DNA from: Candidatus Falkowbacteria bacterium
GTDB lineage: Bacteria; Patescibacteriota; Patescibacteriia; JAACEG01
Assembly (NCBI GenBank): GCA_018651725.1
Contig: JABIDK010000014.1
Span: 70,625 to 134,624, forward strand
Direction of reading: 5' to 3'
Length of the DNA: 64,000 bases
Positions within the stretch are counted from its first letter, which is position 1, and each line of letters begins with the position of its first letter. Below the pieces are notes generated by a model. That model saw only the letters and a program-made list of their open reading frames with translations. It was not told the DNA's origin and made no database searches. Shown one piece after another: positions 21,449 to 26,943 of the stretch. A program made the translations under genes and the position numbers.

Positions 21449-22288
21449 ATGAAACAAGCCTACTTTATTTTTACAATTTTAATTTGCTTGCCCCTTATCG
21501 GGGTTTTTATTTTTCAGAATAATAACTTTGATAAAGAGCTTGTTTTAATGTACGATGAATTACTTTTTGATTTTGAGAAGCTGGCGAAGACAAGCTTAAA
21601 GCCTGATCAGGTTTTAGATAAAAAAATTGAGAATACGTCCGAAGACGAAAACAAAAAAGATGAAAACATTAAAGAAAAAGAAGAAAAAATCGAGTTTGAA
21701 GTTTTACCAAATAAAATTCATTACAACGTTCCTTTTACCTCGCAAGCCCCATTTCGTGATTGGAGTTATCCGTGGCAAGAGTTTTGTGAGGAGGCAGCGG
21801 TTTTGATTACTATGAGATATTTTGATGGTCGGGGAATTAAAGATAAAGATGATGCTAATGATGCTTTGCAGGAAATTATGAAATGGGAAAATGAAAACCT
21901 TGGTTTTTATAAAGATACAACTGCGACAACAACTATGAAAATCATTACTGATTTTTACGAATATGATAATGTAGAATTAAGTCATGACACAACAATAGAA
22001 AAAATAAAACAAGAATTAGCTAAAGGTAATTTAATCATAATTCCAACGGCCGGGCGTAATTTGGAAAACCCATATTTTACTCCACCTGGACCGATTTATC
22101 ATAATTTAGTGTTAGTAGGCTACGATAATGAAAAACAAATTTTTTACACCAACGACCCCGGAATAATGAGCGGTAAAGATTTTAAGTACAGTTATAAAAA
22201 TATAATAGAATCAATAGCTGATTGGAGCTACGAGAAAGAAACTATTGATAAATCAAGAAAAGTTATGATAATTGTGCGAGGTGGTTAA
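21449..22288 (+). CDS. Secreted peptidase C39-like domain protein
   Basis: 279 aa with an N-terminal transmembrane/signal segment. Cys (QEFCEEAAV) and His (HNLVLVGYD) spacing is as in Peptidase_C39_2-type proteins. Confidence 0.5.
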   Translation: MKQAYFIFTILICLPLIGVFIFQNNNFDKELVLMYDELLFDFEKLAKTSLKPDQVLDKKIENTSEDENKKDENIKEKEEKIEFEVLPNKIHYNVPFTSQAPFRDWSYPWQEFCEEAAVLITMRYFDGRGIKDKDDANDALQEIMKWENENLGFYKDTTATTTMKIITDFYEYDNVELSHDTTIEKIKQELAKGNLIIIPTAGRNLENPYFTPPGPIYHNLVLVGYDNEKQIFYTNDPGIMSGKDFKYSYKNIIESIADWSYEKETIDKSRKVMIIVRGG

Positions 22289-22360: not shown

Positions 22361-24337
22361 ATGGAAAATCCAAATTTTTTAAAACAAAAATACAACTTAC
22401 ACAACACTCCGGAAGCAGATTCAGCCGCCAAAAGAACAAAAAAAAGAACAGGCGAAAAAGTTTCTCAAAAGCCGGGCGAGAAAATACAGAATTATTTAGA
22501 TAGATTCAATGAAATTATCGAACGCAAAGATCCGGACAAAAAAGAACGAGGCATTGGAGCGCTTAAAAGAATACTCCATAATAAATTTGTTCTTAAAGAG
22601 GATGAGATTCCGCAAACATATTACAATTTACAAGGCGAAATCGCCGTAGAGGAAGGCAGGACACAGGAGCTTATTGATAGTGGCGTAGAAATAGAAAATA
22701 AAAAAACTAAAAACAAGAAAGGTGAAGAAATTGAAGAAAAAGAATTTATTTTTCCAAATAAGATAAAAAAGGAATTATCAGAAGTCATTATTGCCGATCA
22801 AGAAAGCACTATGGATAACTGGATTGATTATTTATCATCAGATGATGCTCAATATCCTGATTGGCTTAAGTATTATGCTTTTCGAAATATGCTTAACTTA
22901 GGTAAATACGACAAGGAAAGAAAAAAGTTTCCGCCAAGAGAGCTTCCTGACCGCTCGGATAAGCCAAAGAAAAAAGAAAATTTAACCACCGCCCCTTTTC
23001 CCGACTTAAATCGTGAAGCCCTGGCTTATGTTTTGGATGCAATCGAAAAGAAGCATAAAAAAGAAGGCATTAACCTGGAATTCCAAGACGAAGAAGAAAA
23101 AAATAATTTTCAAAAAATACTTCAAGGAGAAAATTTTGCCAAGCTCTACGCCTGGGCGATTGAAAAAGTAACTCCGGCCTCACAAGAAGTCTTGGAAACC
23201 GTCAAGGGCAAATGGATAAAATACGACCAAGGCACAGATCATATGCCTTTGGTTAACTCTCTCCAGGGCCACGGCACTGGCTGGTGCACAGCCGGAGAAT
23301 CAACTGCTCGGACCCAATTACAAGGAGGAGATTTTTATGTTTTTTACTCTGAAGATGAAAATAATAATCCAATTATTCCTCGCGCCGCTATCAGAATGGA
23401 GGGGCAAAGCAAAATAGCCGAAGTAAGAGGCATTGCCCATGAGCAGAACTTAGACGCTCATATCACAGATACGGTTAAAGAAAAAGTGAGCGAATTCGGA
23501 GAAGAGGGCAAAAAATACGAGAAAAAATCAAAAGACATGAAGCACTTGACTGAAATAGAAAATAAAACTAAAAATAACCAAGAATTAACTAAGGATAATT
23601 TAATTTTTCTCTATGAGATAGATGACCCTATTGAAGGCTTTGGCTACCAAAGAGATCTAAGAATCGAAGAAATCCGAAAGATAAGAGACACGGAAAAAGA
23701 TGCATCTATTGTTTTTGAATGCGACTCAAATCAAATCGCCAAAAACATAAGCGAAATAAACGAAAACACCGAAGCCTATATCGGAGAGTGGGATCCAAGT
23801 ATCTATCAAGAAATCAGAAAATACCCAAACATCAAACATCTTTACGAATCTTTTCCGGATAAAAAGATATTCAAGATGAATTTGGAGACTGATCCAAGTA
23901 TCAATTCTCCTCAAACCGCCCTAGAAGCGCTGGAAGGCGAAAATATATATTTAACAAACTGGGCAAAGGATATTTTAAAAGAAACTAAGTTCAGTAAAGA
24001 AAAACAAAACCAAAACCACGAATTAGTCAGATTTACAGTTAAAGAGCTTGGATTTCCAAACGGAGCAACAACCAAAGAAATTTACGATAAACTAGAAGAG
24101 CTTGGGCTGGATCTTTGCCCAACTGAAACAGGACCACAGCTCAGGCTAAAGTATCCGGGCAAAGAGTGGATGTTGATTGCCATGGAACCGATTGCCGACT
24201 CCGATGGCGATCCGGACGTGTTCGATCTGCGCGGGGCTTACGGGCAGCTGGGGCTCCTTGCCCATGACGCTCGGCCCGGCGACAGGTGGCGTCCAGGCGA
24301 CAGGTTCGTCTTCCGTCCCCGCAAGTTGGATTCTTAG
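22361..24337 (+). CDS. DGR target protein; C-terminal about 45 aa form the variable region
   Basis: 658 aa. The 3' 135 nt are a GC-rich repeat with a near-identical copy 476 nt downstream (the TR). The C-terminus ...RGAYGQLGLLAHDARPGDRWRPGDRFVFRPRK resembles the end of a C-type-lectin-fold VR. No N-terminal signal peptide is visible. Confidence 0.7.
   Translation: MENPNFLKQKYNLHNTPEADSAAKRTKKRTGEKVSQKPGEKIQNYLDRFNEIIERKDPDKKERGIGALKRILHNKFVLKEDEIPQTYYNLQGEIAVEEGRTQELIDSGVEIENKKTKNKKGEEIEEKEFIFPNKIKKELSEVIIADQESTMDNWIDYLSSDDAQYPDWLKYYAFRNMLNLGKYDKERKKFPPRELPDRSDKPKKKENLTTAPFPDLNREALAYVLDAIEKKHKKEGINLEFQDEEEKNNFQKILQGENFAKLYAWAIEKVTPASQEVLETVKGKWIKYDQGTDHMPLVNSLQGHGTGWCTAGESTARTQLQGGDFYVFYSEDENNNPIIPRAAIRMEGQSKIAEVRGIAHEQNLDAHITDTVKEKVSEFGEEGKKYEKKSKDMKHLTEIENKTKNNQELTKDNLIFLYEIDDPIEGFGYQRDLRIEEIRKIRDTEKDASIVFECDSNQIAKNISEINENTEAYIGEWDPSIYQEIRKYPNIKHLYESFPDKKIFKMNLETDPSINSPQTALEALEGENIYLTNWAKDILKETKFSKEKQNQNHELVRFTVKELGFPNGATTKEIYDKLEELGLDLCPTETGPQLRLKYPGKEWMLIAMEPIADSDGDPDVFDLRGAYGQLGLLAHDARPGDRWRPGDRFVFRPRKLDS
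24191..24325 (+). repeat. DGR variable repeat (VR)
   Basis: About 135 nt. It aligns with 24667..24801 with roughly 22 differences. In every one the TR base is A and the VR base is G, C or T. Confidence 0.8.
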
Positions 24338-24386
24338 AAACTTTGAACCTTTGTATTTTTTGAAATTTGGACACTTTGACATTTTT

Positions 24387-24666: not shown

Positions 24667-24801
24667 ATTACCGACTCCGATGGCGATCCGAACGTGTTCA
24701 ATCTGAACGAGAATAACGGGCAGCTGAAGCTCAATGCCAATGACGCTAAGCCCGGCAACAGGTGGAATCAAGGCAACAGGTTCGTCTTCCGTCCCCGAAA
24801 G
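24667..24801 (+). repeat. DGR template repeat (TR)
   Basis: It is rich in AAC/AAT codons (aac gtg ttc aat ctg aac gag aat aac ...). All mismatches to the VR fall at TR adenines. Confidence 0.8.
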
Positions 24802-24819
24802 TCGTTTCTTTTTCCGCGG

Positions 24820-25224
24820 TTACCTAAAATTGCGGTTTTTCTTTTCAAAGTTTTTTAGACTATTTTTCCAACCCCCAAACATTTTACCGATTTCATCCAA
24901 CTTGAAAACAATTTCTTCATATTGTTTATTTGAAATAAATTTTGCTTCCCAAGCAACATGAATCAAAAATTTAAGCGTATCTAAAATAAGGATACACTTT
25001 GAAATTTTATCCATCTTCGTTTCTTTTTTAGAAAAATATGCGATATAGGAAATTTCAAGCAAATCAAGAAATTTATTTTCAATTCTAGCGCCAATGGTAA
25101 AGCGCGCAGTTTTCTTAATATGAGGAACAATATTAATCCAAATCAAATATCCCTCTTTGATGCGTTGCAAAATAGAAGATTTATCGAGAGAGAGAGAGAG
25201 AGAGAGAGTAAAAGGCTTCGCCAT
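24820..25224 (-). CDS. avd: Avd-like accessory variability determinant (four-helix-bundle protein, TIGR02436/23S-IVS family)
   Basis: 134 aa. ...IVPHIKKTARFTIGARIENKFLDLLEISYIA...FKLDEIGKMFGGW aligns with Bordetella phage bAvd (...IPRKHGVAREMFLKCLLGQVEL...IAEVGRILGSW). It is one of only two minus-strand genes in the window. Confidence 0.7.
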   Translation of the reverse strand: MAKPFTLSLSLSLDKSSILQRIKEGYLIWINIVPHIKKTARFTIGARIENKFLDLLEISYIAYFSKKETKMDKISKCILILDTLKFLIHVAWEAKFISNKQYEEIVFKLDEIGKMFGGWKNSLKNFEKKNRNFR

Positions 25225-26193
25225 ATTTACAATAATATCATTTCTTTTGATAATTTGCTAATTTCCTGGCAGGAATTTTTGCGAGGGAAAAGAAAAAGAA
25301 AGGATGTCGCGGAATTTCAACTTAATTTTAGTGATAACGTTTTACAGCTTCATCATAATCTTCAAAATAAGACATATAATCATGGTGCTTACCAGGCGTT
25401 TAAAATAAACGATCCGAAGCCAAGAAATATCCATAAAGCTAGCGTGCGAGATCGGATGGTACATCACGCGATTTATAGAATTCTATATCCTTATTTTGAT
25501 AGAAAATTTATTTATGATTCTTATTCTTGTAGAATTAATAAAGGGACACATAGGGCAATAAATAGATTTCGGGATTTTAGCTATAAAGTTTCAAAAAATA
25601 ATATCCGTATTTGTTGGATTTTAAAATGCGACATCAAAAAATTTTTTGCCAGCATTGATCATAAAATTTTGAAAGATATTTTAGAAAAATATATAGCGGA
25701 CAAAAACGCTTTGTGGTTGCTCTTGCGAGTTATAGATAGTTTTAGCAGTAAAAATAAAATAGGAGTCGGCTTGCCGCTTGGAAATTTAACTTCACAACTT
25801 TTAGTAAATATTTATATGAACGAGTTTGACCAGTTTATGAAGCGTGAAATTAAAGCAAAATATTATATCCGCTATGCCGATGATTTTGTTATAATAAGTG
25901 AAAATAAAAAATATTTGGAGGATCTTATTCCAAAAATTTCAAAATTTCTTGAAGAAAAATTAAAGCTCTCACTTCATCCAAATAAATTATTTATCAAAAC
26001 GTTAAATTCCGGAGTTGATTTTTTGGGTTGGGTTAATTTTTCTTATCATCGGGTATTGAGGACGACAACAAAAAGGAGAATGATTAAAAAAGTTACATTG
26101 AAACATAATACGGAATCAATTGCTTCATATTTAGGAATGCTTTCGCATGGAGATGCTTATAAGCTTTCCGAAGAAATTTTATCTAATTTATAA
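25120..26193 (+). CDS. DGR reverse transcriptase (bounds of the ORF from the first ATG; the real start is probably near 25225-25255)
   Basis: LISWQEFLRGKRKRK...KPRNIHKASVRDRMVHHA...SYSCRINKGTHRA...GLPLGNLTSQLLVNIYMNEFD...IRYADDFVII is collinear with Bordetella phage Brt, including the YxDD box. Homology to Brt begins at about codon 36 of the ORF, and there is no in-frame ATG there. Confidence 0.8.
   Translation: MRNNINPNQISLFDALQNRRFIERERERESKRLRHIYNNIISFDNLLISWQEFLRGKRKRKDVAEFQLNFSDNVLQLHHNLQNKTYNHGAYQAFKINDPKPRNIHKASVRDRMVHHAIYRILYPYFDRKFIYDSYSCRINKGTHRAINRFRDFSYKVSKNNIRICWILKCDIKKFFASIDHKILKDILEKYIADKNALWLLLRVIDSFSSKNKIGVGLPLGNLTSQLLVNIYMNEFDQFMKREIKAKYYIRYADDFVIISENKKYLEDLIPKISKFLEEKLKLSLHPNKLFIKTLNSGVDFLGWVNFSYHRVLRTTTKRRMIKKVTLKHNTESIASYLGMLSHGDAYKLSEEILSNL
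25186..25208. repeat. (GA)11 dinucleotide microsatellite, which is (TC)11 on the avd coding strand
   Basis: gagagagagagagagagagagag read directly. It encodes LSLSLSL at codons 7-13 of avd, and ERERERE in the upstream extension of the RT ORF. Confidence 0.95.
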
Positions 26194-26454: not shown

Positions 26455-26943
26455 GTGGTATACTTAATATGTATGTCGCAAACAAAATGTAAAATTTGTC
26501 AAAAAGAGTTTTATATTAGGCCTAGTCGTTTAAAGATTGGTTGGGGAAAATATTGCTCAATTAAATGTAGAAACGTTTCACAGCGAACAGGACGATATCT
26601 TTTTTGCGCAGTATGTAAGAAGAAAATATGGAAAACTCCCAAAGAAGAAAGATGTTCAAAGAGCGGAAAATTTTTTTGTAATAAATCTTGTCAAACAAAA
26701 TGGAGAAATAAATATTATTCTAGAGAAAAACACCATTTTTGGATTAATGGTAAAAATGTTTATCGGACAATAATGTTAGAGCAAAAAGATAAGCCAGTTT
26801 GTAAAAAATGTAAAGTTAAAGATGTTAGAGTTTTAGTGGTTCATCACAAGGATCATGATAGGGAAAATAATAAAATAAATAATTTAATGTGGTTATGCAG
26901 AAATTGTCATCATTTAGTACATATTCACGATAAAAAAGTTTAA
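26455..26943 (+). CDS. HNH endonuclease with N-terminal CxxC zinc ribbons
   Basis: 162 aa. It has multiple CxxC pairs and a C-terminal HHKDHDRENNKINNLMWLCRNCHHLVH HNH box. Confidence 0.7.
   Translation: MVYLICMSQTKCKICQKEFYIRPSRLKIGWGKYCSIKCRNVSQRTGRYLFCAVCKKKIWKTPKEERCSKSGKFFCNKSCQTKWRNKYYSREKHHFWINGKNVYRTIMLEQKDKPVCKKCKVKDVRVLVVHHKDHDRENNKINNLMWLCRNCHHLVHIHDKKV

Follow-up and report, generated by a model that had tools for sequence, protein, structure and literature searches.

A dinucleotide repeat translated on both strands of the avd and reverse transcriptase junction: a candidate contingency switch for diversity-generating retroelements of Patescibacteria

Little is understood of how, in nature, the mutagenesis carried out by diversity-generating retroelements (DGRs) is switched on and off, and a mutator that never stopped would destroy the very variant of the variable repeat (VR) that selection had just favoured. 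The problem takes a concrete form in a DGR encoded by a stretch of 64,000 nucleotides (nt) of Candidatus Falkowbacteria DNA (GenBank assembly GCA_018651725.1, contig JABIDK010000014.1, positions 70,625 to 134,624), the whole of which is called here the window: can a simple repeat, located at the beginning of the accessory gene avd, arm and disarm the element? The evidence presented below, which includes a comparison with about 180 related loci, suggests that this repeat is probably a slipped-strand contingency switch, placed in the 5' end that avd shares with the gene for the reverse transcriptase (RT).

The element is a genuine DGR, as documented by its RT, by adenine-specific differences between the template repeat (TR) and the VR, and by the fold of its Avd protein. 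TR (24667..24802) and VR (24191..24326), both on the plus strand, form a 136-nt repeat pair with 22 mismatches, all 22 of them at TR adenines, of which there are 39; the VR lies at the 3' end of the target gene (22361..24337, plus strand), where it codes for the C-terminus of a 658-aa protein that has no match in Pfam. The avd gene (24820..25224, minus strand, ATG at 25224-25222) encodes 134 aa and matches the Pfam family bAvd (PF22296, E=2.3e-15, residues 29-122). The RT gene (25120..26193, plus strand) encodes 357 aa with an RVT_1 domain (E=2e-24) and a YADD motif; its product is 55-72% identical to the RTs of about 150 loci from the candidate phyla radiation (CPR) that have the same layout, in which avd is inverted between TR and RT and, as a result, avd and RT are divergent.

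The repeat and the two genes that cross it

The repeat occupies positions 25186-25208 and reads GAGAGAGAGAGAGAGAGAGAGAG on the plus strand, a perfect (GA)11G of 23 nt, or (CT)11C as seen from the avd strand. The window, with a G+C content of 34%, contains no other dinucleotide repeat of at least five units; a 14-nt GA pattern with one mismatch at most, expected 0.04 times on the basis of dinucleotide-preserving shuffles, was found 6 times, always in overlapping positions within 25186-25208. The initial annotation had described a perfect 23-nt GA/TC run encoding LSLSLSL at avd codons 7-13, and direct reading of the sequence agrees: the tract begins 15 nt past the avd ATG and codes on the minus strand for TLSLSLSL (T6-L13). 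Its placement inside the 5' coding region of avd also stands, as the tract is part of a genuine Avd gene, but this was only half of the picture, because the same bases, 66 nt past the RT ATG, belong to the plus-strand RT open reading frame (ORF) as well and are read there as ERERERES. With 11 units the tract exceeds the length at which repeats become prone to slippage and, as in contingency genes, it sits in a 5' coding region.

The two ORFs overlap head to head by 105 nt (25120..25224), their codons exactly in register. Opposite the avd ATG lies the CAT codon for RT His35, and opposite the RT ATG the CAT codon for Avd His35; in other words, both genes start on the complement of a conserved His codon of their partner. 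Only 36 nt separate the conserved cores of the two proteins, and the repeat takes up 23 of these; the leader peptides of the two repeat-spanning ORFs are MAKPFTLSLSLSLDK and MRNNINPNQISLFDALQNRR. On the RT side, the overlap gives rise to an N-terminal extension of 30 residues, MRNNINPNQISLFDALQNRRFIERERERES, antisense to avd codons 6-35, after which the RT core begins at K31 (25210), one base past the repeat, with KRLRHIYNNIISFDNLL. In the window no start codon for either gene is present between the repeat and the core; for RT, an origin of translation past the repeat was rejected, as ATG, GTG and TTG are absent up to K31, and the ATG at 25120 is the sole one in frame. A different ATG (25160..25162, plus strand) falls in the frame of the RT core when the number of repeat units (n) is 7, 10 or 13, and accounts for a 343-aa RT called in two near-identical contigs (L001 and L002); it is not conserved among relatives, being specific to this lineage.

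Codon usage in 50-52 related loci with a CT tract bears on whether the RT extension is a real part of the protein. Codons TTA, CTA and TCA, which produce a stop in the antisense frame, never occur in avd codons 14-35 of these loci (0/1100), compared with 188/4100 (4.6%) elsewhere (p=2e-20); the corresponding figures for the same codons are 67/1650 in loci with a poly-C tract and 23/572 in tract-less loci, about 4% versus about 6% elsewhere. Avd His35 is encoded by CAT in 52/52 CT loci, compared with 23 CAT and 9 CAC in the poly-C loci having His at that position (Fisher p=8e-5). Furthermore, the Leu27 codon of avd is restricted to TTG or CTG in the CT loci, a restriction for which a Gln conserved on the RT strand is a better explanation than a use of this codon for initiation. 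The absence of antisense stops, the invariant CAT at His35 and the restriction at Leu27 together imply that the antisense frame is held open by selection. Judged by these codon patterns, translation of RT in the window's subfamily begins at the ATG at 25120 and continues across the repeat, and both strands of the overlap are under coding constraint; the locus offers a clean natural case of a tract translated on both strands of a head-to-head overlap.

On the avd strand, the position of the repeat was compared with the predicted structure of the protein. An AlphaFold2 model of Avd, built on 25 homologues (predicted local distance difference test, pLDDT, 81.6), matches Bordetella phage Avd (4DWL) with a template modelling (TM) score of 0.87-0.89 and a root mean square deviation of 1.5 A; in a fold search, TM values were 0.84-0.89 when 4DWL was considered together with the Avd chains of the ribonucleoprotein structures 8UB7/8UBE. 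These Avd structures were obtained from the fold search, a designed coiled coil being the sole match when the PDB was searched by sequence with an Avd profile. Four helices are predicted, at residues 18-35, 38-64, 67-93 and 99-124; the core of the protein opens at I18 with ILQRIKEGY, the start of helix 1 in the model, where K23, E24 and Y26 are invariant. Residues 1-14 are instead predicted to be disordered (pLDDT <50). Since the repeat codes for codons 6-13 of this leader, changes of length that preserve the frame should be tolerated, and the leader is predicted to be dispensable as well as disordered.

The lack of an avd start between repeat and core, already pointed out in the initial annotation, is borne out by this analysis: ATG, GTG and TTG are absent from that interval and helix 1 starts at residue 18. 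Two TTG codons inside the core were considered and rejected. The one at Leu19 cannot be a general start, because relatives have CTT, CTC or CTG at this position (TTG in 18, CTT in 10, CTG in 6, CTC in 15); the one at Leu27, from which gene callers obtain products of 107/108 aa, would remove half of helix 1 together with K23, E24 and Y26. The prediction that gain or loss of one unit breaks the avd frame is confirmed as well. At n=8, 11 or 14, n=11 being the state of the window, both ORFs are open; at n=10 or 13 the avd ORF stops at a TAA just past the tract, and RT can be read solely from the second ATG at 25160; at n=9 or 12 neither gene has a start.

Conservation, length and phase of the tract among relatives

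The repeat had been described as a property of a single locus; it is real there, but it is not a one-off, since it turns out to be a feature of a whole clade. The Avd search returned 830 homologues, nearly all from CPR/Patescibacteria, whose predicted N-termini consist of (LS)n of widely varying length preceded by unconserved residues; many of the calls are truncated to 107-115 aa. For the survey of orthologous CPR avd genes, 160 loci were taken from species-representative genomes and metagenomes, and 153 have a usable Avd anchor. An RT is found within 250 nt on the opposite strand in 149 of the 153, and a tract at the same site, typically ending about 12 nt (4 codons) ahead of helix 1, in 127 (83%). 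In 52 loci it is a (CT)n of 10-43 nt, with Avd at least 56% identical to that of the window; in the other 75 it is a poly-C of 7-15 nt, with Avd mostly 34-50% identical. One locus (L008) carries C8 followed by (CT)8. The local over-representation is strong: with a slightly stricter definition of the tract, 123 were counted in 150 junction windows (21 kb), versus 11 in 542 kb of flanks (1 poly-C, 0 CT). Among the loci counted as tract-less, L159 (metagenome contig OBEQ011941534.1) has a (CA)n of about 24 nt at the same site, and is out of frame.

A tract so conserved in place could be retained for a role at the level of DNA or RNA, any effect on the avd frame being incidental; the polypurine/polypyrimidine stretch might be a spacer between divergent promoters, form H-DNA, bind a protein, or act as a purine element in the TR/RT-sense transcript for the RT-Avd complex. 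In favour of such a role, the strand bias of the tract never changes, with a C-rich sequence (C, CT, once CA) on the avd strand and a purine-rich one on the TR/RT-sense strand; the tract lies upstream of the RT start in 40/74 poly-C relatives, possibly within an RT promoter or 5' untranslated region, and the distance between the divergent start codons amounts to just -24 to +48 nt, which forces each promoter into the other gene. However, in the window's subfamily the tract is found inside both ORFs, downstream of both ATGs, and no covarying partner of it was identified; moreover, if a particular sequence, spacing or structure were under selection, a length ranging from 7 to 43 nt and the occurrence of three different motifs would hardly be expected, and both speak for instability as the selected property. 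That the tract is conserved for a function in DNA or RNA is regarded as quite unlikely.

Variation in tract length is what the closest relatives display. The Avd protein of the window is identical to MBT4277747.1, from a Candidatus Falkowbacteria metagenome-assembled genome (MAG), and is present in at least 18 contigs, one of them from the JGI sample SI48aug10_135m, a name taken to mean Saanich Inlet. While (GA)11 is found in the window and in 9 further contigs of its strain complex, obtained in several projects, (GA)10 is present in 3 contigs from 3 samples (L001-L003) that match the window at 99.6-99.95%; within the 6.3 kb spanned by L001, the only other difference from the window common to all three is a single nucleotide polymorphism. 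In a sister lineage with near-identical flanks, 20 contigs carry C8 (3 contigs), C10 (11), C11 (4), C12 (1) and C13 (1). Protein clusters at 90% identity give the same picture: full-length Avds differ by whole LS units (P0046 vs P0171), the upstream ATGs of P0176 and P0179 differ and lie in different frames, and many 107-aa calls stand beside full-length ones. Polymorphism of tract length among closely related genomes, with 99.9% identity of the flanks between (GA)10 and (GA)11, is thus a further trait that this locus has in common with contingency genes.

The reading frames of the survey loci are consistent with an effect of such changes on translation. The stretch from tract to core is open in 125/125 tract-bearing loci, and in none of these 125 does an in-frame ATG occur between the tract and the Avd core. 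Among tract-less loci, 25/26 have an upstream ATG that shares the frame of the Avd core, the exception being the (CA)n locus; conversely, when a tract is present, the upstream ATG is in frame in 41/125 (19/50 CT, 22/75 poly-C), near one in three. Of the out-of-phase loci, 83/83 retain an intact Avd core and 70/79 an intact RT core, similar to what is found in phase; by this measure they are neither pseudogenes nor decaying genes, and, as in contingency loci, a change of length moves the ORF in and out of frame while the remaining gene is intact. Addition and removal of one unit in silico (-1, 0, +1), applied to 50 loci of the CT subfamily, showed that every locus has both genes on in one or more phases and both off in one or more others. 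Strict one-in-three switches were obtained in 31/50, whereas 11/50 behave as the window does, with one phase in which both genes are on, one with RT only and one with both off. As for their current states, both genes are on in 16 of the 50 loci and off in 25, with avd only in 3 and RT only in 6.

Out-of-phase lengths may in principle be errors of assembly, or mark DGRs that are being inactivated on the way to loss: homopolymer lengths are error-prone in short-read assemblies, and two thirds of the loci are out of frame. Several findings speak against this. Three samples yielded (GA)10 independently, and several projects and assemblers yielded (GA)11, which is present in the window and in at least 9 contigs besides; a dinucleotide repeat of 20-40 nt is easily spanned by a read, and poly-C tracts of 8 vs 10 vs 13 differ by more than typical miscalls. 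The cores of out-of-phase loci are intact, as reported above, and the RT-extension ORF is under clear purifying constraint. An origin by artefact or decay is largely refuted by these data, and we consider it highly improbable.

It can also be imagined that phase is irrelevant, the tract being a mutational hotspot tolerated in a disordered leader, with functional Avd (and RT) made at any length. This would be possible by non-canonical or internal initiation just past the tract, for which the window has ATT/ATC at Ile18 and TTG at Leu19, or by slippage of RNA polymerase or ribosome on the tract, restoring the frame in some of the products. The proportion of loci in frame, 41/125, corresponds to the neutral one-third, and the preservation of both cores out of phase also fits this reading; some gene callers do start at the Leu19 TTG (P0038, P0132, P0139), Ile18 is ATT, ATC or ATA in 48/52 loci of the subfamily, and frameshifting is promoted by poly-C and poly-Pro runs. 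On the other hand, Leu19 is CTT or CTC in 25/52 subfamily loci, leaving no conserved start; neither the window, which lacks ATG, GTG and TTG from tract to core, nor the other tract-bearing loci, which lack an in-frame ATG there, provide a standard alternative; many out-of-phase loci have no in-frame RT start codon of any kind; and the upstream in-frame ATG is what 25/26 tract-less relatives use. Moreover, we know of no slippage mechanism that corrects a 2-nt repeat during elongation, and a mere hotspot would not be expected to remain pure in 83% of loci, over 34-100% Avd identity, and to be nearly absent from the flanks. On balance, irrelevance of phase is judged unlikely.

The proposed switch and its relation to known systems

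The anatomy of the locus and its comparative pattern are, as far as assembled sequences can tell, those of a contingency locus. This reading is based on a long pure tract behind the start codon, on its local over-representation and on the turnover of C, CT and CA motifs at a fixed site, as well as on length polymorphism between near-clones, random phase and genes that are otherwise intact. In the mechanism proposed, replication slippage would add or remove 2-nt units and, in the window's subfamily, the resulting change of phase would open or close the avd and RT ORFs together; as the RT ORF also crosses the repeat, one repeat would gate both genes. The bRT of Bordetella needs Avd for cDNA synthesis (PMC6182149) and, since RT itself would be gated here, both out-of-phase states should stop adenine mutagenesis of the target VR. 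Such a shutdown would be heritable yet reversible: cells could freeze a useful VR variant, while a minority would re-arm the mutator. From the comparative data we infer that slippage occurs at high frequency within populations, that out-of-phase alleles yield no functional Avd or RT, and that the repeat has been selected as a regulator of DGR activity. Extending this to the relatives, we lean towards the view that a whole clade of DGRs from the uncultured CPR bacteria (Patescibacteria) possesses a heritable and reversible switch of hypermutation, in the form of a long-kept tract at the 5' end of avd, and that in the window's subfamily one event of slippage is enough to switch the entire mutator on or off. 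The proposal also fits the observation that the CPR-restricted DGR clade 2 has an activity below average in metagenomes (Roux et al. 2021, PMC8144416).

Several points weigh against a contingency switch. The fraction of loci in frame (33%) is exactly the value expected without selection on phase and, taken alone, cannot tell a switch from a tract for which phase does not matter. An RT ATG of its own, outside the tract, is found in 40/74 poly-C relatives; coupled gating of RT is hence a feature of the subfamily and not of the clade. A pure slippage switch does not require the tract to be always pyrimidine on the avd strand; this constancy could be explained by descent from a single poly-C ancestor, for which the C8-(CT)8 array of L008 may be compared. 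All of the variation in length is between assemblies, and poly-C lengths in short-read assemblies carry some error. Finally, the consensus VR is identical in every covering contig of the window's strain complex, (GA)10 and (GA)11 alike, so that no link between phase and diversification is seen; in the absence of any VR difference between the two classes, however, this comparison is uninformative on activity.

In terms of mechanism, the closest systems appear to be the outer membrane protein genes of Helicobacter pylori with 5' CT repeats and the poly-G/C contingency genes of Campylobacter and Neisseria. In H. pylori oipA/hopH, sabA, sabB and hopZ, a 5' (CT)n found a few codons past the start encodes Leu-Ser repeats in a dispensable leader; a change of one unit toggles the frame, and the number of repeats varies among strains. 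The window shares with these genes a (CT)n just past the start that codes for Leu-Ser; the differences are that Avd and RT of a mutagenic retroelement, and not a surface adhesin, would be gated, and that a second gene, which overlaps the first, reads the tract on the other strand. For a single tract serving two divergent genes, the closest case is that of Haemophilus influenzae hifA/hifB, in which a (TA)n in the overlapping promoters alters the spacing between -10 and -35 and controls both genes; that control is transcriptional, whereas the tract described here lies inside both coding sequences and would act on the reading frame. A mutator gene, mutL, is subject to a 6-bp repeat switch in Salmonella. 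Together with phasevarions, this is the nearest parallel for the gating of a mutator or a global modifier, in that a repeat exerts second-order control; the mutator considered here is, however, site-directed (adenine mutagenesis of one VR by reverse transcription), and neither genome-wide nor epigenetic. In phasevarions, the repeat toggles a mod methyltransferase and many downstream phenotypes change (PMC5909438).

As regards homopolymers, poly-G/C tracts of 7-15 nt are strongly over-represented near the 5' ends of particular genes in Campylobacter, Neisseria and Haemophilus, with on and off states mixed (PMC6321876, PMC11868660). The poly-C relatives resemble them in tract length, 7-15 nt, and in the mixed phase among genomes. 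Those loci belong to host-adapted pathogens and concern mostly surface-structure or restriction-modification genes, while the present ones affect a DGR component in free-living or episymbiotic CPR bacteria; furthermore, reversible switching has been measured in the former, whereas in the latter it is predicted from assembled sequences. Among DGRs, the element of Bordetella phage BPP-1 (mtd-avd-TR-brt) is similar for the C-terminal VR, the differences at TR adenines, the four-helix-bundle Avd and the DGR-type RT; Avd is pentameric in 4DWL and 8UB7, and the model for the window matches their individual chains. In BPP-1, however, all parts are on one strand without any repeat tract, unlike the window, where avd is inverted between TR and RT, the head-to-head overlap spans 105 nt, and the repeat lies inside it.

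Full-text searches of the literature (including PMC5758913, PMC8144416 and bioRxiv 10.1101/2024.11.15.621889) found no repeats, homopolymers or phase variation reported at avd or at the DGR RT, although a mention in Paul et al. 2017 (Nat Microbiol) is still possible. What appears to be new is the application of a repeat-driven contingency switch to a DGR, with the repeat read on both strands of a gene overlap. If this is true, the locus would represent a case of second-order control, a random mutator gating a directed one; it would provide a simple genetic answer to the question of DGR control for CPR bacteria, the largest reservoir of cellular DGRs, and explain why many of their DGRs look inactive. 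Existing metagenomes make the relation between phase and VR diversity directly testable. Annotation is affected too. Databases contain wrong or truncated calls for about two thirds of these avd and RT genes (Avd of 107, 108 or 115 aa, RT of 296-351 aa), a systematic effect of the tract and of the overlap, so that any DGR survey in which intact accessory genes are required will miss some of these elements or score them wrongly.

Other features of the locus

Upstream of avd, a consensus scan revealed a promoter-like site on the minus strand (25232..25261), consisting of TTAGCA, 18 nt and TG-n-TATTAT; the extended -10-like element, TGATATTAT, ends 7 nt ahead of the avd ATG. In 34-37 of 50 subfamily loci a TGATATnAT motif precedes the ATG by 5-9 nt, and the avd mRNA may be leaderless; the conservation of the motif is nonetheless ambiguous, because the same bases code for the conserved RT N-terminus. 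Two other functions of the tract were considered and abandoned. As a promoter spacer it was rejected, since none of the promoters from the consensus scan has the tract as part of its spacer, and shuffles gave at least as many matches. A Shine-Dalgarno function of the purine tract was dropped on the basis of L035, a poly-C locus with an RT ATG of its own and the single case read by hand, where the tract is located about 37 nt upstream, too far for this purpose.

In the TR, position 24770 is A in the window and C in all 8 other contigs of the strain complex that cover it; the matching VR position is C. Relative to its near-clones, the TR of the window thus has one extra adenine, i.e. one additional mutable site. 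A terminator-like hairpin, CCGCGGTTACCTAAAATTGCGG followed by a T-run (24814..24835, plus strand), was detected by consensus scan only; it lies 12 nt past the TR end and overlaps the avd stop codon, and it could be a bidirectional terminator splitting the TR RNA from the RT mRNA, or a structure at the 3' end of the DGR RNA. A 25-nt tandem repeat (24326-24386, 2.4 copies, 78% matches) starts on the last base of the VR and spans the stop codon of the target gene; initiation of mutagenic homing (IMH) and hairpin elements of DGRs are often located at the VR end or in the stop region of the target gene.

Divergent avd-RT DGR loci were also found in records labelled Gammaproteobacteria, Bdellovibrionales or Ignavibacteriaceae (several MAGs), and a 3.4 Mb contig labelled Pirellulales (L053, CAWIRC010000001.1) contains a DGR of this layout without a tract. 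The loci with non-CPR labels reflect either mis-binning or mislabelling, or a real spread of the cassette beyond CPR.

Finally, two genes flank the retroelement. Downstream, a Cys-rich ORF of 162 aa (26455-26943, plus strand) adjoins RT; its match to HNH_3 is weak (E=1.3e-4, under the Pfam cutoff), and it may encode an accessory nuclease of this type of DGR. Directly upstream of the target gene, on the same strand, is the gene for a Peptidase_C39-like protein (21449-22288, plus strand, E=1e-11), which may be linked in function to the 658-aa target.

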